DNA of 32,000 nucleotides from Flavobacteriaceae bacterium (GTDB lineage: Bacteria > Bacteroidota > Bacteroidia > Flavobacteriales > Flavobacteriaceae), in assembly GCA_965224465.1 (NCBI GenBank), contig OZ245049.1, positions 4,680,001 to 4,712,000 of the forward strand, read 5' to 3'. Positions 1,078-12,397 of the stretch are shown in pieces. The notes under the pieces are model-generated. The model worked only from the letters and a program-made list of their open reading frames with translations, ran no database searches and was not told the origin of the DNA. The number at the start of each line of letters is the position of its first letter. Position 1 is the first letter of the stretch. Made by a program: the position numbers and the translations under genes.

Positions 1078-2961
1078 ATGTATAAGGAAAGTCTATTTGA
1101 ATTAATAAGAAAAGAAGAAGTTGTGATTTGGGCTGGTGCTGGATTATCACTTTACGCTGGTTTTCCCTCAGGTAAAAAGCTTGGCGAAATCCTTCTTGAT
1201 AACTTATCTATATCTGAAAAAGAGAATATAAATGTTAATCTTCCTCTACCTAATTTAGCCGAAGAATTCTATAGGATTAAAAACCATAATAGAAACTCAT
1301 TAATCAGGATATTAAATCAAACATTCATAGACAAAAAACCAATATCTACAGAATGTCATCAGAATATTGCACTCATTCCTCATTTTAAAACCATTATAAC
1401 TACTAATTATGATACGTTATTTGAAAATGCTTACCAGCAAAATGGACAATTAGTATACTCTGTAAAGCATATACCATATCTTGAAAATGGTAAAACTCAA
1501 ATATTCAAAGCTCATGGTGATTTGCAAGAACCTGATAGTATAATAATAACATACTCTGACTACAACAAATTCTTCAAAATTAATAGTGAGAATGGTGTTT
1601 ATTGGACTGTTATAAAAGAAAGACTTTCTACTAACAATGTTCTGTTTTTGGGATACAATATTGAAGATCCTAATGTTTCTATAATATTTGATAAAATTAC
1701 TGATGAGTTAGGTTCAAACAGAAAAGAATGTTTTCTTGTAGCTCCCGATTTACCTCCACAAAAAGTTAATGACCTAATTAGAAAAGGTATTAACTATATC
1801 AATTCTACTGCTGAAGTCCTAATTTCTGAATTGCTTCAAAATTTAAAAGAAAATACAATTGCGGATATTGAAAAAGGTAAAACAACAGCAGACACCTTTC
1901 GTCATTTTCTGTCAAATATTGATTTACTACCCGAATTAAAAGCAGAAAAGGAGGGCTTTAAGGTAAAGTCAATTAAAGGAAATAATGATAAAGTTGAGGG
2001 GAAAATGAACCTAACTTTTAAAAATGATCCAGTTTTTATAAAGGAACTTAATGATTATGTAACAGGAAAAAAAATAGGAACTTTTGAAATCTTTGGGGAT
2101 AAGTTAATAAACGCTGATTTTTGGTATGGTGGATTGAAATTTCCAGCCTCAGAAGGTATTGCTAAACTCGAATTTAAGAGTTGTCCAAAAGTTAATACAT
2201 CTATAGATATTCGCTTTGAGGACGGATTTGAGATTACTGATCTACCTATAAAGTTATATGGTTCTCCATCAATAATTGAAATACACGCTGAATTTAAAAA
2301 TGCTGATCTTATTGTCAATCTTAACTTGGAGACCTTACCTGAAACAAAGGTGAATTTTAACTATACGCATAAAGAAATTTGCAATAATGTAAGAGATGAA
2401 ATCGAACTATTTACCTTCTTAAAAAAATTAGGTGAAGGTGAAATATTTACTGTCTTCGCAAAATCGGGAGAAGTTTTCGAAAAATCTTTTCCAATTATGA
2501 AACCATTACAAGATGAAGGATATTTCTTTCTCAATTATTTTAACAACCTCAAAAAGATAGAACAATATTATAAGTTGCGTTTTTCCAATATAAGTATTCA
2601 TTCTGTGACAGATTCGGTAATTAAGAAAGTTGAATTATTAATTACAGTTATTAATGGTGAAAAAGTTGAATATGATTGGAATGATGAATTGACGCTGAAT
2701 TTATTTGATGGTTATGATGAAAATATTGAACAATTAAGGCAAGTTAATGAGATAAATGCTCCTGTAGTTGCGCATCATAAAGTTGAAGAGATAATAGATC
2801 TACATGGGCATGAAATAAATATAGGATATAAAAAGGTTGAATTTTTAGAGTCTTATGTGTCTAACTTGCAGGAAATAATTGATATGAAAGAAGATGTAGT
2901 TAAAATGAAAAGCAAGTGTGATAAAATTTTAATTTCTTACACTAAAGAAGATGATGAATGA
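1078..2961 (+). CDS. SIR2_2-family (defence-type sirtuin-like, putative NADase) protein with an unassigned ~350-aa C-terminal domain
   Basis: 627-aa ORF with an ATG start. N-terminal motifs VVIWAGAGLSLYAGFPSG, IITTNYDTLFE, FKAHGDL...IITYSDY and VLFLGYNIEDPNV are typical of the SIR2_2 (PF13289-like) fold. I recognise no motif in the C-terminal half. Confidence 0.8.
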   Translation: MYKESLFELIRKEEVVIWAGAGLSLYAGFPSGKKLGEILLDNLSISEKENINVNLPLPNLAEEFYRIKNHNRNSLIRILNQTFIDKKPISTECHQNIALIPHFKTIITTNYDTLFENAYQQNGQLVYSVKHIPYLENGKTQIFKAHGDLQEPDSIIITYSDYNKFFKINSENGVYWTVIKERLSTNNVLFLGYNIEDPNVSIIFDKITDELGSNRKECFLVAPDLPPQKVNDLIRKGINYINSTAEVLISELLQNLKENTIADIEKGKTTADTFRHFLSNIDLLPELKAEKEGFKVKSIKGNNDKVEGKMNLTFKNDPVFIKELNDYVTGKKIGTFEIFGDKLINADFWYGGLKFPASEGIAKLEFKSCPKVNTSIDIRFEDGFEITDLPIKLYGSPSIIEIHAEFKNADLIVNLNLETLPETKVNFNYTHKEICNNVRDEIELFTFLKKLGEGEIFTVFAKSGEVFEKSFPIMKPLQDEGYFFLNYFNNLKKIEQYYKLRFSNISIHSVTDSVIKKVELLITVINGEKVEYDWNDELTLNLFDGYDENIEQLRQVNEINAPVVAHHKVEEIIDLHGHEINIGYKKVEFLESYVSNLQEIIDMKEDVVKMKSKCDKILISYTKEDDE

Positions 2962-3171
2962 ATAACGCCCAGCCCATAACAAAAGTTAAATTTCATGGGC
3001 GCTGATGTGTCGTTTGAAAGTTTAGTGCAATTAATAAATACCAGCAAGCCAATTAAATGGGTTTGCTTAAAATTATAAATTTAATCGACTTGCTTATTTG
3101 GCGCATTGATAAGATTACTCTTTGAAATCGCCCACGACCTTTGCAAGACCGTTACCTGCAAGCTGAAAAAA

Positions 3172-3891
3172 ATGAAGATAAATACTGAAAACATAAAACA
3201 AATGATTTTTCTTCCTCAGGACTTTTTTAAATCTGAAAATTTACTTGAACGGCTAGATAACCAATTTCTTAATCTAAGGATAAATTTAAAAAATAAAAAT
3301 CGTTCAGAAGCAAAGAATGAACTTAATGCCTTTTATCAAATATGTTTGATTAGCGTTAAAATAGAAGAAATTCTTTTAAATGTTCATTTATTTATGTTTG
3401 ACTCACTTATAGAATATTCTAAGCAATTTGAAAGTATTGAAACTTTAAATAATATAATAAAGGCAATAGAAAGTCCTGAATTAAAAGGTAAATTATTTTC
3501 TAAATTACCAATTAAATCTAAAATTCTATATGCACAAGTTCTATTCTACCGTTATGAATTAGAAAACCGAAAGTGTGATGGTAAATTTTCTAAAGAAACA
3601 ACTGATTTTTTATTGAAGTCAAAATTTTATCTTCTTAAAGTTTACACTCAGCATATAGAATTAAAAATTACTCTTTCAGAAAATCAATTATCAACCTGTT
3701 TGTCATATTTATCTATTTGCTTATCTCGGCTATCTAGATGGTTTGAGCCTATTTATTATCTGGAATTAATTAATCAAGAAAACAATCCGAACATAGATTA
3801 TCTATACGCTATAAATTTAGATGCTATAAAAAAGAAAACTTGTTTGAATTATAACTTAAATTCAACTAATAAACGCAACTTTTCGATTTGA
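3172..3891 (+). CDS. hypothetical, predicted mostly helical protein; native 3' end replaced by IS30 sequence
   Basis: ORF in the track runs 3106-3891 (TTG start). The first ATG is at 3172 (MKINTENIK...). The last ~10 codons (NSTNKRNFSI*) lie inside the left inverted repeat of the IS. No recognisable domain. Confidence 0.5.
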   Translation: MKINTENIKQMIFLPQDFFKSENLLERLDNQFLNLRINLKNKNRSEAKNELNAFYQICLISVKIEEILLNVHLFMFDSLIEYSKQFESIETLNNIIKAIESPELKGKLFSKLPIKSKILYAQVLFYRYELENRKCDGKFSKETTDFLLKSKFYLLKVYTQHIELKITLSENQLSTCLSYLSICLSRLSRWFEPIYYLELINQENNPNIDYLYAINLDAIKKKTCLNYNLNSTNKRNFSI

Positions 3892-4975
3892 TTCTATGAT
3901 GGTTATATTTTCAAAACAGAAAAGTAGGAAAACCTACCTTTCTTGTCTTGATGGATATGTATCTTACGGTCTCAAATCTCGAAAAAAGAAGTTGTATGAA
4001 ACACATCACCCAAGCGCAAAGATACACAATTTGTTGCATGTTAAAACAAGGTTATAAACAGGTTGAGATAGCAGCTGCTATAGGAAAAGACAAGTCTGTT
4101 ATTAGCAAAGAGATTAAGCGTAATTCAGACAAAAGAAATGGAGTTTACAAGCATGAATTAGCCCAAAAAAAGTATGCTAAACGTCATAAAGAAAAGCCTA
4201 AAAGAAAACGCTTTACAGAAGATATTCAACAAGCAATAGAGTTGTTATTGCGAGACGATTATAGTCCTGAGCAAGTAGTTGGTGTCCTAAAAAAACAAGG
4301 TAAAGAAACGGTGTCTATTGAGCGTATATATCAGCATATTAGGGAAGACAAGAGGAATGATGGTGATTTACATACACACCTTCGCAGACAGGGAAGGAGA
4401 TATAGAAAACGTGGCTCATCAAAGGATTCTAGAGGGGTTATAAAGAATCGTATTAGTATAGAACAACGCCCTGAAGTTGTTGAACAAAGAAATCGATTTG
4501 GAGATTTAGAGGTCGATTTAATCATAGGTAAAAACCATAATCAAGCCATACTTACCGTAAATGATAGAGCTTCTGGAATGCTTAAAATGAAAAAAGTAAG
4601 CTCTAAAGAAGCAGTTGTTGTCACTAAAGCTATCAATGAAATATTAGAAGACTGGAAGCCTTATCTACATACTATAACAGCTGATAATGGAAAAGAATTT
4701 GCAGGCCATGAGCAGGTTGCAGAAAATTTATGTATTGATTACTTTTTTGCGCATCCATATCACTCTTGGGAAAGAGGATCTAACGAAAATTTAAATGGTT
4801 TGATTAGACAATATTTTGCCAAAGGAAGTGACTTTACAAACCTAACAGATCAAAGAATCAAAGAGGTAGAAACAAAATTAAATAACAGACCTAGGAAGAG
4901 ACATAAATATCAAAACCCTATATTTGTAATGGAACAATTATTATTTAACTAAAAGTTGCGTTTGTGACTTGAATT
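3859..4975 (+). mobile_element. IS30-family insertion sequence (~1.1 kb)
   Basis: Imperfect terminal inverted repeats: caactaataaacgcaactttt (3863-3883) versus the reverse complement of 4951-4971, caagtcacaaacgcaactttt (18/21). Both are flanked by AATT (3859-3862 and 4972-4975), which is either a target duplication or part of the IR. The element encloses a single IS30-type transposase ORF. Confidence 0.8.
3996..4952 (+). CDS. IS30-family DDE transposase
   Basis: N-terminal HTH (ITQAQRYTICCMLKQGYKQVEIAAAIGKDKSVISKEIKRN) and a DDE core (DLEVDLI..., TITADNGKEF, NENLNGLIRQYF) are typical of IS30 transposases. Alternative upstream starts at 3948 (TTG), 3951 and 3957 (ATG). Confidence 0.9.
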   Translation: MKHITQAQRYTICCMLKQGYKQVEIAAAIGKDKSVISKEIKRNSDKRNGVYKHELAQKKYAKRHKEKPKRKRFTEDIQQAIELLLRDDYSPEQVVGVLKKQGKETVSIERIYQHIREDKRNDGDLHTHLRRQGRRYRKRGSSKDSRGVIKNRISIEQRPEVVEQRNRFGDLEVDLIIGKNHNQAILTVNDRASGMLKMKKVSSKEAVVVTKAINEILEDWKPYLHTITADNGKEFAGHEQVAENLCIDYFFAHPYHSWERGSNENLNGLIRQYFAKGSDFTNLTDQRIKEVETKLNNRPRKRHKYQNPIFVMEQLLFN

Positions 4976-4989
4976 CAGCCAATATATAC

Positions 4990-5829
4990 ATGACAAAACC
5001 ACAAACCATACAAATATTCTTGCCCGATGGTTCTCCAACGAGTATACGTGAAGCTGAAATAACCACTAGATTGGTGAAAGCTATTTTATTTCCTAGAAAT
5101 AAGATGGAAGAAGTATCAAAACGTAAAATGGTGCACTATACAGGTGTCTACTTTTTGTTTGGTTATACAGAAGACGGAGCAAAGCCAATGGTATACATCG
5201 GAGAAGGAGAAGATTGCTTTACACGTATACAATCACATAATAGGAAAAAAGATTTTTGGACGCACTGTGTTATTATTGCTGCTAAAACAGATGAGTATAC
5301 CAAAACCGATGGTAAATACTTAGAGCATTATTGTCTGTCAAAAGCAAAAGAAATTGGGCGTTATTCTATTGATAACGATACGGGTTCTAAAAAGCCATCA
5401 ATATCTGAAAGTAGAGAGTATGATTTATTGGACAGTTTTGATACTGCTAAAATATTATTAGCAACATTGGGATTTCCTATTTTTGAAGAAAAGCGTAAAG
5501 TAAAAAGCAAAAAAGAACTTTTTTATTGTCAGAGTAAAAACGTTTCAGCTATTGGTGAATTAACAGATGATGGTTTTTTAGTGTACAAAGATGGAGAATC
5601 AACTGTAGAAGAAACCAAAGGAATGAATAAATGGATTGGGATTCTAAGAAAACGTTTAATAGATGAAGGGATCCTTAAGAAAGTGAACGAGGTGTATATA
5701 TTTCAACAAGATTACATTTTTAATTCGCCTAGTGCTGCTGCCGCTACAATTTTAGGGCGTTCTGCAAATGGTTGGATGTCTTGGAGAGATGAAAACGGGT
5801 TAACGTTAGATGAATTAAAGAGGAAATAG
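4990..5829 (+). CDS. GIY-YIG nuclease-family protein with C-terminal DUF4357-like domain
   Basis: GIY-YIG core GVYFLFG...MVYIGEGEDCFTRIQSH...FW. C-terminal FNSPSAAAATILGRSANGWMSWRDENGLTLDEL matches the DUF4357 signature from memory. ATG at 4990 (MTKPQTIQIFLPDG). The track ORF begins at 4969, inside or adjacent to the IS right end. Confidence 0.75.
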   Translation: MTKPQTIQIFLPDGSPTSIREAEITTRLVKAILFPRNKMEEVSKRKMVHYTGVYFLFGYTEDGAKPMVYIGEGEDCFTRIQSHNRKKDFWTHCVIIAAKTDEYTKTDGKYLEHYCLSKAKEIGRYSIDNDTGSKKPSISESREYDLLDSFDTAKILLATLGFPIFEEKRKVKSKKELFYCQSKNVSAIGELTDDGFLVYKDGESTVEETKGMNKWIGILRKRLIDEGILKKVNEVYIFQQDYIFNSPSAAAATILGRSANGWMSWRDENGLTLDELKRK

Positions 5830-5939
5830 CTTATATTTTAAATGAATCAATCTAAGTTTAGGATAGTATCTAATAATAAATTAAGTTTGCTTTGTCTAAA
5901 TCAAAAATTTCGCCATGTGCCAATCTATAATTTTTGACA

Positions 5940-8390
5940 ATGACAACAGTACAAATAAAAAATAATGCTCAAGAAGCGTTTAACAACAAGGATTACCCAA
6001 AAGCTTTTAATACTTTATGGAAGCTTGGTGTAGTTGGTTTTTTAGAGTTTTCTCAAAGTGAAGACCGTAGGACTAAAAAACAGAACTGGTTAGCTATTAA
6101 CTGGAAAAAGCAGAATACTAAGGGCTATCGCTATTTTTGGGATACCTTTATCTTGCAAGAAAATGTGTTTTCAGCTTGTTTTTCTTCCCAAAGACCGGTG
6201 GAGTTACTGCACAATTATTTTTCAAAAACAATTATTTTTAATGAGGCGTTTGAAACAAAATTAGCCAAAGAATACCCGCGTATTTTTGTGGAAGCTATTC
6301 GGAAAAATGAAGTTTTTTTCAGAGAGGATCGTATTGATTTTTTGCTAAAGGAAGGTTTGTTAGTGGATGAGTTTGTAATTCATCAAGATGTTTGGGAGTC
6401 TTTTCAAAGCGTAGAATTAGAACTCTGGAATCAAATTGAGTCCACAATAGTTATAATTGAAAAATACCCTTTAGAGCATATTTTGTTTTATACCGTAGGC
6501 TATTTTGAAACTAAAAATTACGAAGCTGCTTTTGATCTCCCAAATCAGACTTATTTAGCGGAGGGCTATAGTTTTTTTATAGACTTAATTTTAAGAAATC
6601 CGAAGGTAAAGCAACAAGGTTTTAGCACAGAACAATTTGAGAAGGGCTTTATTCTAACTATTTTTAAAAATAAAGATTTGGAACTTGAAAACGCCATATC
6701 TAAATGTCTTAATCTGATTATGAATAGACAAGGTCTTAATTCTAGTTTTTTTCAGACCTACTGTTTTAACGCTGATTTTGTTCCAAAATATATTTATGAA
6801 TCTTTATGTTTTTATGAGTCTCCAGAATCTCAATACCAGTGGAATGTTGATGAATTTCGCTATAAAGTAAACGAAGAAGTTTATAAGGAAAAGGGAACTC
6901 TTATCGTTGAAAGGCAATTGGAAAACGGAATGCTAATTCCAGGTATAGATGAAGCACATTATTTAAATAATAAGCGTTTAGCATGCAATTTACAAGCTGT
7001 TATTACAGTTTTGAACGATTTGAAATTATCACATTTTAATTCTAAAAACGTAAAAGTTACACCTGTAGCTGTTATAAAACCATTATATGTATATGCTTTT
7101 AATAGATTGGTGAGATATTACGAAGGGTTAAGAAACATACAACAGAGTCCGCCTAAATCCGTAAATAGTTGGAAAACGGCACTTTTGGAACTGGTACGTA
7201 CTCATAGAAAAGGCTACCAACTTCCTTTTGTCTATACATCAAAACAGGAGTATTTTGATTTGAATATAAAAGCAGACAAGGAATTTGACCTAGCAACGAG
7301 TAATCAAGTGTTAAATCAATTTGGATTAAATAGAGTGGGATTAAAACCATTTGATCGTTTTAATTTAAAGTACGCTGTGATAGATACTCCCTTTATATTA
7401 TTAGGAGATTATATATTTAGTCCTGTATTATTTTTTACCAGTTTTACAAGTCAAAACGTATATGTAAAATCCTTACTTCAAAACGATAACAGACGTACTG
7501 CAAGTGATATTGAAAACGTATTAGAAGATTTATTAGTAGCACATGGGCTTGAGATAAAGCACCCAAGTAACAAAGAAGTAAGTTTAATTAATGGGGATGC
7601 AGACCTAATTGTTTCTGATGATAATAATGTCTTATTAATTCAATTAAAACGAACAAGTTTAAGGTTAGATTATAAAGCGCAATATTATGAGCATATACAT
7701 ACAGATTTAAAAGCTGCGAATCAGTTGAATAATGCGGAACAGTATTTTACAACTGAAAACCCTGTATTTGACTTAAAAAACAGGAAAGTAACAAAATGGA
7801 TTGTTTCTAATTCCTTTGAAAAAGTAAATACAGAGATTAACAACTGCTTAAAAGTGAATTATTTAGATCTTGTCAATGTTTTAAGTAATACTGAAGGAAT
7901 GACCTTTAAAACGCTGCCTGATTTTATTTCTTTTTTTGAGGAGGATACCTACTTTAATTCCATTGCTAAAGAATTAATAGAAGGGAATACTATGTTTAAA
8001 GGATTGTTTTCAATATCAAACACAAAACATCGTAATTTCTCATGGAAACACTTTGATGAAGTAAAAGCAACTAAGTACCGTCATTACTATGATAAGGGGA
8101 TAGAATTGAGCGAAAAAGGATATCATAAAAATGCGATCAAGTCACTTAATGAGTGTTTAAAGTTAGAAAATGAAGATTTTGAAGTGCATGGTGTTATAGC
8201 AAATGTTTATGCAGATTTAAAGAATTATAAAAAGGCGTTTTTTCATTATGAAAAAGCCTTAGAAATTGTTCCTAATGAACCTCTAGTACTTAAAAATTAT
8301 GCATATACATTAGCAGAGTCTGGGGATCAAAAAGGGGTGGACTTAGCGAATCAAATGATTAATAATTACCCCTTTTTAAGTTTAATGTAA
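5940..8390 (+). CDS. large uncharacterised protein (816 aa) with a PD-(D/E)xK-like nuclease motif and C-terminal TPR repeats
   Basis: Long uninterrupted ORF. Motif ...DIENVLEDLL...GDADLIVSDDNNVLLIQLKR (nt ~7594-7653) has the spacing of a restriction-endonuclease-like D...(E/Q)xK core. The last ~100 aa (YDKGIELSEKGYHKNAIKSLNECLKLENEDFEVHGVIANVYADLKNYKKAFFHYEKALEIVPNEP...) are TPR-like. No family name recognised. Confidence 0.6.
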   Translation: MTTVQIKNNAQEAFNNKDYPKAFNTLWKLGVVGFLEFSQSEDRRTKKQNWLAINWKKQNTKGYRYFWDTFILQENVFSACFSSQRPVELLHNYFSKTIIFNEAFETKLAKEYPRIFVEAIRKNEVFFREDRIDFLLKEGLLVDEFVIHQDVWESFQSVELELWNQIESTIVIIEKYPLEHILFYTVGYFETKNYEAAFDLPNQTYLAEGYSFFIDLILRNPKVKQQGFSTEQFEKGFILTIFKNKDLELENAISKCLNLIMNRQGLNSSFFQTYCFNADFVPKYIYESLCFYESPESQYQWNVDEFRYKVNEEVYKEKGTLIVERQLENGMLIPGIDEAHYLNNKRLACNLQAVITVLNDLKLSHFNSKNVKVTPVAVIKPLYVYAFNRLVRYYEGLRNIQQSPPKSVNSWKTALLELVRTHRKGYQLPFVYTSKQEYFDLNIKADKEFDLATSNQVLNQFGLNRVGLKPFDRFNLKYAVIDTPFILLGDYIFSPVLFFTSFTSQNVYVKSLLQNDNRRTASDIENVLEDLLVAHGLEIKHPSNKEVSLINGDADLIVSDDNNVLLIQLKRTSLRLDYKAQYYEHIHTDLKAANQLNNAEQYFTTENPVFDLKNRKVTKWIVSNSFEKVNTEINNCLKVNYLDLVNVLSNTEGMTFKTLPDFISFFEEDTYFNSIAKELIEGNTMFKGLFSISNTKHRNFSWKHFDEVKATKYRHYYDKGIELSEKGYHKNAIKSLNECLKLENEDFEVHGVIANVYADLKNYKKAFFHYEKALEIVPNEPLVLKNYAYTLAESGDQKGVDLANQMINNYPFLSLM

Positions 8391-8464
8391 TAATAGGTTT
8401 GTAATAGTAAGTTTATAAGTATCGATTTAATTATCCGAGAGGATCAATTTTAAATTAATTCGAT

Positions 8465-9325
8465 ATGATAACAACTAAATTTATTCCAAGTGTAAATTTT
8501 CATTTATGGGAACCTTGTAATATGCGTTGTAAATTTTGCTTTGCCACGTTTCAAGATGTGAAGCAAACTATTTTACCCAAAGGGCATTTATCAAAAGAAA
8601 AAGCGATAAACGTAGTTAAAAAATTAGCGGACTATGGTTTTAAAAAGATAACTTTTGCTGGTGGAGAACCTATGCTTTGTCCTTGGTTGCCAATGCTAAT
8701 TAAAACAGCAAAGGAGTTAGGGATGACAACGATGCTTGTTACAAATGGGAGTCAACTAACAGAACGTTTTTTAATAGAAAATAAAACCTATTTAGATTGG
8801 ATTGCTATTAGTATAGATAGCCTTAATGAGGCTACTAATTTAAACATAGGTAGGGCTATTGTGGGGAAACGTGCATTAACGGAGGCGTTTTATAAAGAGC
8901 GTATTAAGGATATAAAAAAGCATGGCTACGGTTTAAAAGTAAACACCGTTGTAAATGCGTACAATCACTTAGATGATTTTAACGATTTCATTAATTTTGC
9001 GAAACCTAAAAGATGGAAAGTATTACAAGTGTTACCAATAGAGGGGCAGAACGATCATAAAATAGATGCTTTTAAAATTAGTGGTAAGCAGTTTAATACT
9101 TTTGTAGCAAAACATGCGGGTTTAAATAGTATGGTGCCAGAATCTAATAATGAAATGCAGGGTAGTTATGTTATGATTGATCCTGCAGGTAGATTTTTTG
9201 ATAACTCTAAAGGTAAACATCACTACAGTCATTCTATAGTGAATAATGCCGTAGAAAAAGTAATTAAACAAGTTGATTACAGTTTTAAAAAATTCATACA
9301 AAGAGTTGGTTTGTATAATTGGTAG
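8465..9325 (+). CDS. prokaryotic viperin (pVip), radical-SAM antiviral nucleotide dehydratase family
   Basis: The 286-aa protein aligns by eye with animal viperin along its whole length. CNMRCKFCF (CxxxCxxC, nt 8516-8539) vs CNYKCGFCF; ITFAGGEPML vs INFSGGEPFL; VTNGSQL; LDWIAISIDS vs LDILAISCDS; RWKVLQVLPIEGQN vs RWKVFQCLLIEGEN; VPESNNEMQGSYVMIDP vs VPESNQKMKDSYLILD. It also ends in a C-terminal W. Confidence 0.9.
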   Translation: MITTKFIPSVNFHLWEPCNMRCKFCFATFQDVKQTILPKGHLSKEKAINVVKKLADYGFKKITFAGGEPMLCPWLPMLIKTAKELGMTTMLVTNGSQLTERFLIENKTYLDWIAISIDSLNEATNLNIGRAIVGKRALTEAFYKERIKDIKKHGYGLKVNTVVNAYNHLDDFNDFINFAKPKRWKVLQVLPIEGQNDHKIDAFKISGKQFNTFVAKHAGLNSMVPESNNEMQGSYVMIDPAGRFFDNSKGKHHYSHSIVNNAVEKVIKQVDYSFKKFIQRVGLYNW

Positions 9326-9494
9326 CTGAATATGCTTTGGGTATTTGATTATATAGAGAATAGGACCTCTTTTTTAATTGTAGATAGAACAATATTATGT
9401 TTTAGATAGAAATAAGGGAGGGGGTATTTAGAAAGGATTGGCTGTGCCATCCTAGAAGATGGGGCTGGGTAAGCATGTGAAAACTAATTGCTAT

Positions 9495-9538
9495 CACGTT
9501 TCTATTTGTGGTCTCGGTTATGGCTCAGTTTACCACTT
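9495..9538 (+). repeat. copy 1 of a ~45-bp imperfect direct repeat flanking the DUF45 remnant
   Basis: CACGTTTCTATTTGTGGTCTCGGTTATGGCTCAGTTTACCACTT. In frame it reads M*KLIAITFLFVVSVMAQ, a signal-peptide-like 5' gene end with a stop at codon 2. Confidence 0.5.
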
Positions 9539-9965: not shown

Positions 9966-10054
9966 AGTTTTGGGTATAAATGCTAAATATTGAGCTGTCT
10001 TTACTATTGCGATTGAAGGGGAGGGCTTGAGCTTGAATAATTTTTTGCAAACAT

Positions 10055-11146
10055 GTAAAAGTAGTTTCACTGCGTGAGTTGTTGGTTTTTTAGTTTTAAA
10101 GTTGAGTTTTTGGAGGGATTTGCTTTGCTTTCCCTGAGTGGGGGTTTAGGTACGTATGTAAAACCAATCTCACTGCTTGAGTTGTTGGTTTTTTAGTTTT
10201 AAAGTTGAGTTTTTGGAGGGATTTGCTTCGCTTTCCCAGAGTGGGGGTTTAGGTATGTATGTAAAACCAATATTAATGCGTGCGCTTTTTGGTTGTTTGT
10301 TTTTTAGGTTTAAAGTTGAGTTTTGGGTAGGGGATTCGCTTTGCTTTCCCAGAGTGGGGGTTTAGGTATATGTAAAACCACTCTCACTGCGTGAGTTGGT
10401 TGTTTTTTAGTTTTAAAGTTGAGTTTTGGGAGGGATTTGCTTTGCTTTCCCTGAGTGGGGGTCTTTTGTAAGCGTATAAAACCAAGCTCACTGCGTGAGT
10501 TGTTGGTTTTTTTAGTTTTAAAGTTGATTTTTTGGAGGGATTCGCTTCGCTTTCCCAGAGTGGGGGTTTAGGTATATGTAAAACCAATCTCACTGCGTGA
10601 GTTGTTGGTTGTTGGTTTTTTAGTTTTAAAGTTGAGTTTTGGGAGGGGATTCGCTTTGCTTTCCCTGAGTGGGGGTTTAGGTATGTATTTAAAACCAATC
10701 TCACTGCTTGAGTTGTTGGTTTTTTAGTTTTAAAGTTGAGTTTTGGGAGGGATTGCTTCGCGTTCCCAGAGTGGGGGTCTAGGTATGTATGTAAAACCAA
10801 TATTACTGCGTGAGTTGTTGGTTTTTTTAGTTTTAAAGTTGAGTTTTGGGAGGGGGGATTCGCTTTGCTTTCCCTGAGTGGGGGTTTAGGTATGTATGTA
10901 AAACCAATCTCACTGCGTGAGTTGTTGGTTGTTGGTTTTTTAGTTTTAAAGTTGATTTTTTGGAGGGATTCGCTTTGCTTTCCCTGAGTGGGGGTTTAGG
11001 TAAATGTAAAACCAATCTCACTGCGTGAGTTGTTGGTTGTTGTTTTTTTAGGTTTAAAGTTGAGTTTTGGGAGGGATTGCTTCGCGTTCCCAGAAGGGAA
11101 TCCTTGGCAAGCATATAAAACCAAGCTCACTGCGTGCGCTTTTTGG
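10055..11146. repeat. tandem array of ~11 units of a 100-112 bp repeat, each containing a terminator-like hairpin and a G-rich box
   Basis: Unit starts (CACTGCGTGAG) at about 10068, 10171, 10271, 10385, 10489, 10591, 10702, 10803, 10911, 11019 and 11127. Consensus: CACTGCGTGAGTTGTTGGTTTTTTAGTTTTAAAGTTGAGTTTTGGGAGGGATTCGCTTTGCTTTCCCTGAGTGGGGGTTTAGGTATGTATGTAAAACCAATCT. The hairpin AAAACCAAtCTCACtgcGTGAGttgTTGGTTTTTT spans each unit junction. Confidence 0.9.
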
Positions 11147-11205
11147 TTTTTTTATATCCCAAAAGTTACGAAAGCTAGCTTTCGACGTTTTGGGATATAA
11201 AAAAA
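11147..11205. repeat. 59-bp near-perfect palindrome between the array and the tRNA terminator
   Basis: TTTTTTTATATCCCAAAAgttaCGAAAGCT|AGCTTTCGacgTTTTGGGATATAAAAAAA. 26 paired positions (18 + 8) with one small internal loop. Confidence 0.85.
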
Positions 11206-11227: not shown

Positions 11228-11234
11228 CCTTTTG

Positions 11235-11319
11235 CGGAGAAAGAGGGATTCGAACCCCCGGAGGTGTGACCCTCAACAGTTTTCAAGACTGCCGCATTCG
11301 ACCACTCTGCCATTTCTCC
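11235..11319 (-). tRNA. tRNA-Ser (anticodon UGA), long variable arm, no encoded CCA
   Basis: Reverse complement: GGAGAAATGGCAGAGTGGTCGAATGCGGCAGTCTTGAAAACTGTTGAGGGTCACACCTCCGGGGGTTCGAATCCCTCTTTCTCCG. Acceptor GGAGAAA/TTTCTCC, anticodon loop CT-TGA-AA, T-arm GGGGGTTCGAATCCCTC. Similar to E. coli tRNA-Ser(UGA). Confidence 0.9.
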
Positions 11320-11409: not shown

Positions 11410-12138
11410 TTAAGATTTGAAATCTCTTAATTTTCCGTTTAAAATCAATGGAATATTCGCAGCTTCTCTATCAATAGCTCCGTTTTCGTCGCAGTCAAAA
11501 GATTTATAATTGATCGTAATCAATTTGATTTCCTTTTTTTCTAAGTAATCTTTTTTACGTTGTTTGTAAATGTCGATTTTTGCAGCTCTTGCGCTGTCTA
11601 AAAATCCTTCTTTTGCAATTTCTTCTTTAAAATAACTTTCGAATTCGATGGCTAATTTTAAGTCTTTGTAAAAAGCATCAATAGGCAATTTAGTTCTAGA
11701 TTTGCTGTTTTTATGCATGTCACCTAATAAGAAATCAAAAGTATGTTTACGTACCGCTGTTTGATTTAATATTTCATCACATAAGTTTAAAATAAAAGTC
11801 TCGTCACTGTTTTTAATAGTATTGAGTGCTTTTTGTTTGTTGGTGATGGTTGGTATTGCATTCGTAGGAGTGTATGTAGCTCCTACTTTTACGATGTACC
11901 AATAGATGGTTTTTTCGTTGCGTTCTGCATGTACACATGGAATTTGATCCAAGGTGTTGTTCTTGTCTAGCGTGCGTAAGAGTTTTCTTAGAGGCAATCC
12001 TTTTTTGTTGTCTTTGTTAAATATCCCACCTTTTATTAAAGCTGGCATTAAGTCTTTGGCTGGAATCCAGTTGGTGTCATGCTCCTCAAAGTACTTTGAA
12101 ATGATTTCGTTTATTTTGCTGATGCTATCGTTGTTCAT
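11410..12138 (-). CDS. hypothetical protein (242 aa from ATG; 253 aa from upstream TTG at 12171)
   Basis: Clean ORF between the two tRNA-Ser copies, same strand as both. No family recognised. The C-terminal segment LPIDAFYKDLKLAIEFESY faintly resembles a D...E.E/K restriction-endonuclease-fold core. Confidence 0.55.
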   Translation of the reverse strand: MNNDSISKINEIISKYFEEHDTNWIPAKDLMPALIKGGIFNKDNKKGLPLRKLLRTLDKNNTLDQIPCVHAERNEKTIYWYIVKVGATYTPTNAIPTITNKQKALNTIKNSDETFILNLCDEILNQTAVRKHTFDFLLGDMHKNSKSRTKLPIDAFYKDLKLAIEFESYFKEEIAKEGFLDSARAAKIDIYKQRKKDYLEKKEIKLITINYKSFDCDENGAIDREAANIPLILNGKLRDFKS

Positions 12139-12276
12139 GATCTTGGTATTTCTAAATGTATTTGTTGTCAAACGTTTATTTCAGGAATGACATGTTTTTA
12201 TTCTTGTTTTAACCTGAATTTGAGACGTGTAAGTTACAAAAATCAAGTCGTTTTATTTATAATTAATATAAAATAT

Positions 12277-12311: not shown

Positions 12312-12312
12312 G

Positions 12313-12397
12313 CGGAGAATGAGGGATTCGAACCCCCGGAGGTGTGACCCTCAACAGTTTTCAAGACTGCCGCATTCGACCACTCTGCCAATTCTCC
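12313..12397 (-). tRNA. tRNA-Ser (anticodon UGA), second copy
   Basis: Reverse complement: GGAGAATTGGCAGAGTGGTCGAATGCGGCAGTCTTGAAAACTGTTGAGGGTCACACCTCCGGGGGTTCGAATCCCTCATTCTCCG. Identical to copy 1 except for a compensatory swap of the seventh acceptor-stem base pair (A:U to U:A). Confidence 0.9.

Follow-up and report, generated by a model that had tools for sequence, protein, structure and literature searches.

A gene for a protein of 816 amino acids (aa) was studied in a stretch of 32,000 nucleotides (nt) of a Flavobacteriaceae genome (contig OZ245049.1, positions 4,680,001 to 4,712,000; the window), together with the prokaryotic viperin gene (pVip) that follows it. Judged from its sequence and from structural models, the protein is a predicted Mrr-type PD-QxK nuclease with an intact active site, and in 17 of 25 informative loci, in which the nuclease proteins are 25–64% identical, its gene is directly followed by a co-oriented pVip. 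Hairpins of one architecture precede both genes; as a twin leader, they appear to represent a new cis-element. The interpretation favoured here, with moderate confidence, is that of one defence module with two complementary effectors, the translation of which would be jointly restrained by the leaders.

The open reading frame (ORF) of the nuclease gene runs unbroken on the + strand from 5934 (TTG) or 5940 (ATG) to 8390. The ATG at 5940, giving 816 aa, is likely to be the start by comparison with the relatives, since all homologues open with an MTELQIK-like sequence and the conserved leader hairpin stops 1–2 nt 5' of this ATG. The downstream gene is a bona fide pVip: the product of 8465–9325 matched NF038283 with 328 bits (cut-off 180; E = 3.1e-98) and the PADLOC pVip models with E-values down to 3e-142. 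A spacer of 74 nt separates the stop of the nuclease gene (8390) from the ATG of pVip (8465) on the same strand, and no intrinsic terminator was found on the + strand of this spacer. The existence of the 816-aa gene, its position 74 bp upstream of pVip, the common strand and the lack of an obvious terminator had been stated in a preliminary description of the window, made from the sequence alone, and all of them were confirmed.

The spacers between the nuclease gene and pVip measure 49–76 nt, the one exception being a locus in which a gene is disrupted. Within the close clade, pVip follows directly on the same strand in the window and in loci L001, L002, L004/L005, L006/L007 and L012, and is absent from L003; locus L008, where a reverse-transcriptase gene and then the contig end follow the nuclease gene, stands outside the informative count. 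Among 20 metagenomic loci, whose proteins share 25–46% identity with that of the window, 11 carry pVip directly downstream, six lack it and three were too short. Approached from the pVip side, three of four sampled Flavobacteriia pVips (those of Patiriisocius, Tenacibaculum and Xanthomarina) have a family member of 633–647 aa immediately upstream, verified by the profile and the QxK motif; no family member is present upstream of the pVip-kinase fusion of Lacinutrix mariniflava, which belongs to the same sample.

The outer neighbours vary: HsdR in L001, L003, L004 and L012, McrBC in L006, L034 and L036, BREX BrxL on the plasmid L037, and a PDC-S14/DUF4357 gene in the window and L002. Since the outer genes differ among loci, the conserved unit is the gene pair, and this pair sits always in defence islands. 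The recurrence of homologues next to viperins or in defence islands, proposed as a check in the preliminary description, was observed on both counts. In the loci with HsdR, McrBC or brxL, the nuclease gene, whether or not pVip accompanies it, repeatedly stands directly after the last gene of the restriction-type system and is co-oriented with it; a preferred site of insertion, or else a functional link, could account for this placement.

Three other loci deserve mention. In L008, the nuclease homologue P0013 is followed (2749–4489) by a non-coding stretch of 750 nt and then by the reverse transcriptase (RVT_1, E = 3e-41), which looks like a group II intron and stands at the place expected for pVip. 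In L023 (1505–4038) the nuclease ORF is broken after 364 codons, and in L026 (3228–3344) only the first ~40 codons of pVip are detectable; both look like decayed copies, and the module can therefore erode.

Prokaryotic viperins are regarded in the literature as single-gene systems, sometimes with nucleotide kinases. Pairs of pVip with a kinase (CMPK2-like, VakA) likewise have a conserved accessory gene linked or fused to pVip; in those pairs the kinase supplies substrate, whereas the partner in the window is a nuclease, located upstream of pVip and with its own leader. The kinase linkage is described in a survey of viperin neighbourhoods (bioRxiv 10.1101/2023.09.13.557418), in which only kinases are reported and the word 'nuclease' occurs 0 times. 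In Flavicella sediminum (L002, 12537–13970) the pVip that follows the nuclease gene carries a VakA-like nucleotide kinase as a C-terminal fusion, and nuclease, viperin and kinase are therefore together in one operon.

The nuclease-pVip pairing is already catalogued. Model PDLC02906 of PADLOC-DB v2 ('NERD', 'Viperin-associated NERD') matched the window protein significantly (E = 7.5e-20), with aa 483–672 aligned to positions 378–541 of 542, so that the match is partial and covers the nuclease part only. Ten relatives found with the profile of the window protein all matched the same model (E from 1e-13 to 1e-37), several over positions ~20–540 of 542; residues 23–617 of P0060, for example, align to positions 22–536. 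With this match and with pVip adjacent, the window protein is, on sequence grounds, a divergent member of a family already linked to viperin by a defence database. The protein family and the genomic partner are the same; in the Flavobacteriaceae branch, however, the N-terminal region of the window protein no longer aligns to the profile, and its tail of ~110 aa, made of tetratricopeptide repeats (TPRs), lies outside the 542-position model.

An exhaustive HMMER search with the TPR-free profile A2 against 1.84 billion representatives of clusters at 50% identity gave 244 representatives at E ≤ 1e-3, of which 135 reached E ≤ 1e-30; many of the 244 align across profile positions 1–685. The earlier views that the protein is an orphan and that its pairing with pVip is not a known one thus gave way to 244 relatives and an existing PADLOC entry. 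A word-indexed search with the full protein was swamped by TPR-rich candidates and yielded 13 close relatives (53–64% identity) and one at 33%; repeated with an alignment of 59 sequences, it was again swamped and gave the same 13–14 close relatives only. A profile scan of genome contigs with the close-clade alignment gave two loci only. The close relatives came from Flavobacteriaceae (Winogradskyella rapida, Flavicella sediminum, uncultured Olleya) and from metagenomes, and members named in their sources are called 'tetratricopeptide repeat protein' or 'hypothetical protein'. Viral contigs and phage genomes yielded no relatives, and PHROGs matched the TPR tail only. Pfam and NCBIfam have no entry for the nuclease family, NCBIfam giving only TPR-type similarities, all below cut-off. 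Literature searches on viperin with NERD, on 'viperin-associated' and on pVip neighbourhoods found no description or test of the PDLC02906 family.

The motif of the window protein consists of E525, G552-D553-A-D555-LIV, the residues SDDNNV, and LLI-Q568-L-K570-R-T; the gap between GDADLIV and LLIQLKR is therefore of six residues, not of nine as first given. Active-site conservation was assessed with hmmalign on 162 sequences. E525 was present in 146 of 149, and D553, D555 and K570 were each present in 152 of 152. At position 568, 142 sequences carry Q and 10 carry E, the E forms (IELKR, GELKR) being those of the most distant members, and in alignment A3 the catalytic residues are invariant. 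An alternation of E and Q at the classical (D/E)xK position is as predicted by homology to PD-(D/E)xK enzymes. Since a 'PD-QxK' catalytic site is documented for Mrr-cat domains (EcoKMrr, MspJI family; PMC12707154, PMC11037411), Q568 is to be seen as the mark of an active nuclease subtype and not of decay. The restriction-endonuclease-fold site with Q in the E/D position, as proposed in the preliminary description, is this known Mrr-cat variant.

In the full-length AlphaFold2 (AF2) model, with a mediocre predicted local distance difference test (pLDDT) value of 67.6, E525 lies on a helix, D555 at a strand start and Q568-x-K570 at the end of the next strand. The domain-only model (aa 478–690, 50 sequences) reached a pLDDT of 87.1 and a predicted template modelling (TM) score, pTM, of 0.83. 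It has the alpha-beta-beta-beta-alpha-beta core of the PD-(D/E)xK fold (helices H42–57 and H101–127; strands E61–63, E79–82, E86–93 and E139–146), and the predicted catalytic residues are placed as in PD-(D/E)xK enzymes: the first helix bears E525, strand 2 begins at D555, and strand 3 ends with Q568-x-K570. The best 50 Foldseek matches of this model in the PDB were almost all PD-(D/E)xK nucleases, among them the R.BspD6I small subunit, McrC, the N.BspD6I nickase, the R2 retrotransposon restriction-like endonuclease and AF1548, together with Shedu SduA, Bax1, Hjc/Hje, FokI, XisH and EcoT38I. Structure prediction and Foldseek comparison, which had been recommended at the outset, thus yielded a nuclease fold at the motif. 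On these sequences and models, the protein would be expected to have nuclease activity, with a substrate presumed by analogy.

In sequence searches, no PDB match was obtained with the 710-position profile; the domain profile gave eight sub-threshold matches, four of them to Hjc resolvases, and in the alignment with ST1444 E-D-ExK lies over E-D-QxK. When 50 domain sequences were scanned with Pfam, Mrr_cat was matched by 11 (weakly, best E = 5.8e-4), Hjc by four, and PDDEXK_9 and PDDEXK_4 by one each; none of these 50 relatives reached the gathering threshold of Mrr_cat (PF04471). NERD (PF08378) was matched at E ≤ 1 by none of the 50 nuclease domains, nor by the full-length proteins. The label 'NERD' is therefore only the PADLOC name of the family, Pfam NERD membership not being found, and is best read as 'PD-(D/E)xK'.

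Among known systems, Mrr_cat (EcoKMrr, MspJI) shares with the window domain the restriction-endonuclease fold and the D...QxK site, and is the best, though weak, Pfam match of the 11 members mentioned. Unlike these type IV enzymes, the family has no winged-helix or SRA reader of DNA modification, and has instead a helical region of ~475 aa, with or without TPRs. McrC, Shedu SduA, the R.BspD6I small subunit and Hjc are structural neighbours of the domain model, but the likeness is at fold level only (TM 0.3–0.49, 9–20% identity), and their partners and architectures are other ones. A single-gene defence protein of Pseudomonas, compared by description, is also large and multidomain and has a PD-(D/E)xK-type E/D/E/K site (E535, D567, E580, K582) needed for defence; it differs in its accessory domains (VHS, DUF647, S4) and has no viperin link.

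The region N-terminal to the nuclease domain (aa 1–~477) is modelled by AF2 as helices only, with pLDDT mostly 55–90. It is conserved family-wide, the profile matches spanning positions 1–685, and corresponds to PDLC02906 positions ~20–375 in relatives; it had no match in Pfam, NCBIfam or the PDB. The suggestion that the N-terminus is TPR-like did not hold, as no Pfam TPR match was obtained there and the AF2 model shows three short helices. For the last ~100 aa the same suggestion proved right. The TPRs lie at aa ~707–809; Pfam found nothing but TPRs in the 816-aa protein (aa ~727–809), with scores above cut-off at aa 748–779 (TPR_2, 30.7 bits against a cut-off of 27; TPR_8, 30.3 bits against 25.7), and Foldseek matched the tail to designed CTPR3 and related proteins (root-mean-square deviation 1.2–2.4 Å over ~100 columns, target-normalised TM 0.7–0.88) and also to the OGT TPRs; the full-length model matched TPR proteins only. 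Tails of 100 aa or longer occur in 78 of the 119 full-length members, while the other 41 are tail-less, with no intermediates; tail-less members also adjoin pVip (L022, L025, L030, L034–L036). From these sequences, the TPR tail is regarded as optional and dispensable in a third of the family. The helical and TPR parts may have a sensing role, as in the 'large sensor scaffold' first imagined.

A Bacteroidetes -7 box, of consensus TAnnTTTG in Bacteroides and Flavobacterium promoters, was present 54–69 nt upstream of the ATG of the nuclease gene in 18 of 23 loci, and the copy of the window, TAAGTTTG, would by its sequence and retained position function as promoter. Before pVip the box was present in one of 17 loci, that of the window (TAGGTTTG, 8394–8401, starting 71 nt upstream of the pVip ATG). 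This spacer box is probably a chance match; it could also be an extra pVip promoter in the window strain. A pVip-specific promoter in the spacer was rejected as a general feature of the pair, none of the 16 other loci having a box like TAGGTTTG. With the -7 box standing before the nuclease gene only, and with no terminator in the spacer, a single promoter and a bicistronic mRNA are expected, and nuclease gene and pVip are presumably co-transcribed. The link with pVip and the possible co-transcription put forward in the preliminary description are thus upheld to the extent that the linkage is conserved and an operon is probable.

The leader hairpins in front of both genes were not contemplated in that description, and a search of Rfam 15 with positions 5800–9500 of the window, which include both leaders, gave no match at E ≤ 1. 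They share an outer stem of 8–13 bp, no more than 3 unpaired nt on the 5' side, a shorter inner stem (3–6 bp), a variable apical loop and a conserved internal loop of 7–14 nt on the 3' side only (CAAUUUUAAA-like; consensus YAAUYUUWAAA). In hairpin 1, the outer stem is formed by UCAAAAAUU (5901–5909) and AAUUUUUGA (5929–5937); the hairpin has a weak inner stem (CGC/GUG) and CCAAUCUAU as its 3' internal loop, and extra pairs extend into AUGACA. Hairpin 2 has a minimum free energy (MFE) of −13.6 kcal/mol (z = −3.7); its 3' arm ends at the pVip AUG, with the last pairs taking in the A and U of this codon, and the 3' ~48 nt of the spacer are conserved above the level of coding DNA. As an intrinsic terminator hairpin 2 was rejected, because a U-run is lacking and the 3' arm reaches right up to the ATG of pVip.

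The architecture was found in 37 of 38 leaders by their own folds (21 of 21 before the nuclease gene, 16 of 17 before pVip) and is the MFE structure in 34; distant loci retain it despite quite different sequences. The hairpin of the nuclease gene is present also in loci without pVip (L003, L014, L017, L026 and the plasmid L037). All eight outer and four inner stem positions show 3–6 different Watson-Crick or G-U pair types each, a covariation read from per-sequence MFE folds and a structure-anchored tabulation and not from a tool-made alignment; RNAalifold on a MAFFT alignment of 21 leaders, in which the stems were out of register, predicted nothing. Compared with 139 control starts of the same loci, pVip starts had a median pairing probability over −12 to +2 of 0.75 against 0.43 (p = 4e-8) and a median MFE of −12.2 against −7.0 kcal/mol (p = 1.5e-5).

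Two covariance models were built, R1 from the close pVip leaders and R2 from the nuclease-gene leaders; their E-values are rough (short calibration) and the cross-matches weak. R1 found the distant pVip leaders of L030 (E = 9e-5), L035 (0.004), L013 (0.008) and L016 (0.02), and the nuclease-gene leaders of L030 and L016 (E ~0.03) and of L020 and L025 (0.2). R2 found the held-out nuclease-gene leaders of L008/L009 (E ~1e-11) and L022 (0.007), and the pVip leaders weakly, at exactly the correct positions; its score of 61.9 bits on hairpin 1 was obtained with a copy that is part of its training alignment. In L033, a single case of pVip without the nuclease gene, the leader element is lacking, and a plain 15-bp hairpin and an unstructured 28-nt leader are found. 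The twin leaders are evidence that both genes are regulated as a unit, and a control at the level of translation would be consistent with their position.

The possibility that the leaders work as palindromic DNA, either as recombination sites or as operators to which a dimeric transcription factor binds, is considered very improbable. The outer stems are indeed near-perfect inverted repeats of 8–13 bp and the covariance model also scores the minus strand, but it does so weakly, with 17–32 bits against 71–82 bits on the plus strand. The strong asymmetry, with 7–14 nt unpaired on the 3' side only, and the G-U pairs, which would be mismatches in DNA, argue for an RNA structure; moreover, the position of the element is fixed to the AUG and not to the promoter, and no regulator gene is conserved nearby.

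A second alternative takes the protein as mainly a regulator, an RNA-binding or RNA-cleaving switch acting on the shared hairpin, e.g. on the loop YAAUYUUWAAA, rather than as a killer nuclease; upon infection, the hairpin would be cut or opened, the protein itself and pVip would be translated, and antiviral nucleotides would be made only when needed. An autoregulatory operator would be expected to resemble this leader, which precedes both cistrons and accompanies the nuclease gene even in loci lacking pVip; the G-U stem pairs (L025/L032, L001, L016) point to structure at the RNA level, the conserved single-stranded loop suggests a trans-acting factor, and PD-(D/E)xK/NERD domains can be RNases, e.g. 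ZwsA. Against this, no RNA-binding domain was detected in the protein, its Mrr-cat relatives are DNA endonucleases, its physical link to the hairpin is hypothetical, and a constitutive low-expression role accounts for the leader equally well; we regard this alternative as unlikely. That nuclease/TPR protein and twin hairpins form an RNA-level infection switch, with viperin synthesis on only in infected cells, is held to be decidedly unlikely.

Under the preferred reading of a two-effector module, the single promoter upstream of the nuclease gene would give a bicistronic mRNA with leader 1 at its 5' end and leader 2 as intercistronic element. The hairpin of each cistron would bury the region just 5' of the AUG, and often the AUG too, and translation of both proteins would therefore be kept low and controlled together. 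Prokaryotic viperins generally make chain-terminating ddh-nucleotides that block phage transcription, and this would be the part of pVip in the module. Upon perception of an infection cue by its helical/TPR part, the nuclease would attack the nucleic acid of the phage; from the analogy with Mrr-cat enzymes, DNA is the most likely target. A synergy between nuclease and pVip may be supposed.

Several points weigh against this joint module. The loci are phylogenetically related, and the counts are of non-independent events. In about one third of the loci (L003, L014, L017, L019, L027–L029 and L037) the nuclease gene occurs without pVip, followed by unrelated genes (MatE, an ABC ATPase in opposite orientation, small ORFs); the protein therefore does not need pVip and can persist alone. 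Viperins of prokaryotes reportedly protect when cloned alone, and each member of the pair may be an autonomous system. The leader could work as DNA, or could serve only for the tuning of expression. As to the nuclease, the Foldseek matches of the domain model reached a probability of up to 0.99 at modest E-values (2e-3 to 0.1) and TM 0.3–0.49, and Pfam gave no nuclease match for the window protein or its domain at E ≤ 1. The NERD-domain protein ZwsA is an RNA endonuclease (bioRxiv 10.64898/2026.04.06.716636), and the substrate may be DNA or RNA.

These points lead to a third alternative, in which a stand-alone Mrr-like (type IV-like) restriction or abortive nuclease and an independent pVip share an operon for co-mobilisation and co-expression only. 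It fits the stand-alone nuclease genes, including that of L037, a Tenacibaculum plasmid where the gene adjoins BREX, and the one pVip without a nuclease gene (L033). It is nevertheless rated as fairly unlikely, given that adjacency, strand and spacer length are held from 25% to 64% protein identity while the other neighbours change, that pVip is without a -7 box of its own and has acquired a nuclease-type leader, and that adjacency plus shared leader exceed the loose clustering usual in defence islands. The features of the proposed module are detailed in Table 1.

Table 1. Location of the nuclease gene, of pVip and of their predicted elements in the window (all positions counted from its first nucleotide).
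Feature	Position	Strand	Basis
816-aa gene, viperin-associated PD-QxK nuclease (predicted) with C-terminal TPR tail	5940..8390	+	Profile, motif, PADLOC match
N-terminal all-alpha region, aa 1–~477, family-specific	5940..7370	+	AF2 model, family conservation
Restriction-endonuclease-fold (Mrr-cat-like PD-QxK) domain, aa 478–690	7371..8009	+	Domain model, Foldseek, PADLOC match
Predicted catalytic motif	7512..7649	+	E525 7512–7514, D553 7596–7598, D555 7602–7604, Q568 7641–7643, K570 7647–7649
Three TPR repeats, aa ~707–809, optional C-terminal module	8058..8366	+	Pfam TPR_2/TPR_8/TPR_1, Foldseek
pVip (prokaryotic viperin, radical SAM), second cistron	8465..9325	+	NCBIfam NF038283, PADLOC pVip models, Pfam Radical_SAM
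Candidate Bacteroidetes-type -7 promoter box TAAGTTTG (TAnnTTTG)	5882..5889	+	Position kept among loci
Leader hairpin 1, 5' leader of nuclease gene	5893..5945 (about)	+	Per-sequence fold, model R2
Leader hairpin 2, intercistronic, over pVip start: GUAUCGAUUUAAUUAUCCgagaGGAUcaauuuuaAAUUAAUUCGAUAUG	8419..8467	+	MFE, conservation, R1

Other elements of the window surround the pair. A PDC-S14 candidate, a DUF4357/RAMA-containing protein, is encoded at 4969–5829 (+; PADLOC E = 2e-107), and in Flavicella sediminum, too, this gene (L002, 8556–9398) immediately precedes the nuclease-pVip pair. An IS30-type transposase (HTH_38 and rve; 3948–4952, +) lies within the defence island, flanked by the PDC-S14 gene and by a 261-aa ORF without assigned family (3106–3891, +). 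At 1078–2961 (+) a 627-aa protein with an N-terminal SIR2_2 domain is encoded, matching ThsA-type models of PADLOC (E = 1.6e-33); its C-terminal region of ~380 aa is without any match, and no obvious ThsB-like gene adjoins it. About 730 nt downstream of pVip, a 103-bp tandem repeat (10.4 copies, 82% matches; 10053–11152) yields spurious repetitive ORFs on the minus strand (10384–10800, 10833–11114) and stops ~80 nt from a tRNA-Ser gene. This gene belongs to a near-identical tRNA-Ser(TGA) pair (11234–11319 and 12312–12397, both −), differing in one compensatory pair of the acceptor stem, which encloses a 253-aa ORF without assigned family (11410–12171, −); housekeeping genes follow from 12542, and the region of the pair may be the integration boundary of the island.

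The association of nuclease and pVip is known from PADLOC, and the TPR-bearing Flavobacteriaceae branch is a divergent variant of the family; to our knowledge, as far as searchable literature goes, this family is unpublished. With clustering at 50% identity it counts no fewer than 244 clusters, nearly all of which bear the annotation 'hypothetical' or 'tetratricopeptide repeat protein', and it deserves a proper family definition. A sizeable branch of the pVips of Bacteroidota stands in a fixed operon behind an Mrr-like nuclease, on the counts from the pVip and the nuclease side, which suggests that many viperins in nature are one arm of, or are controlled by, a two-effector module. If an RNA-level switch were true, it would be a previously unknown mode of viperin regulation and a new class of cis-regulatory RNA specific to a defence operon. 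The start-codon-masking leader offers a cheap and concrete handle on whether and how the output of a bacterial viperin is regulated.

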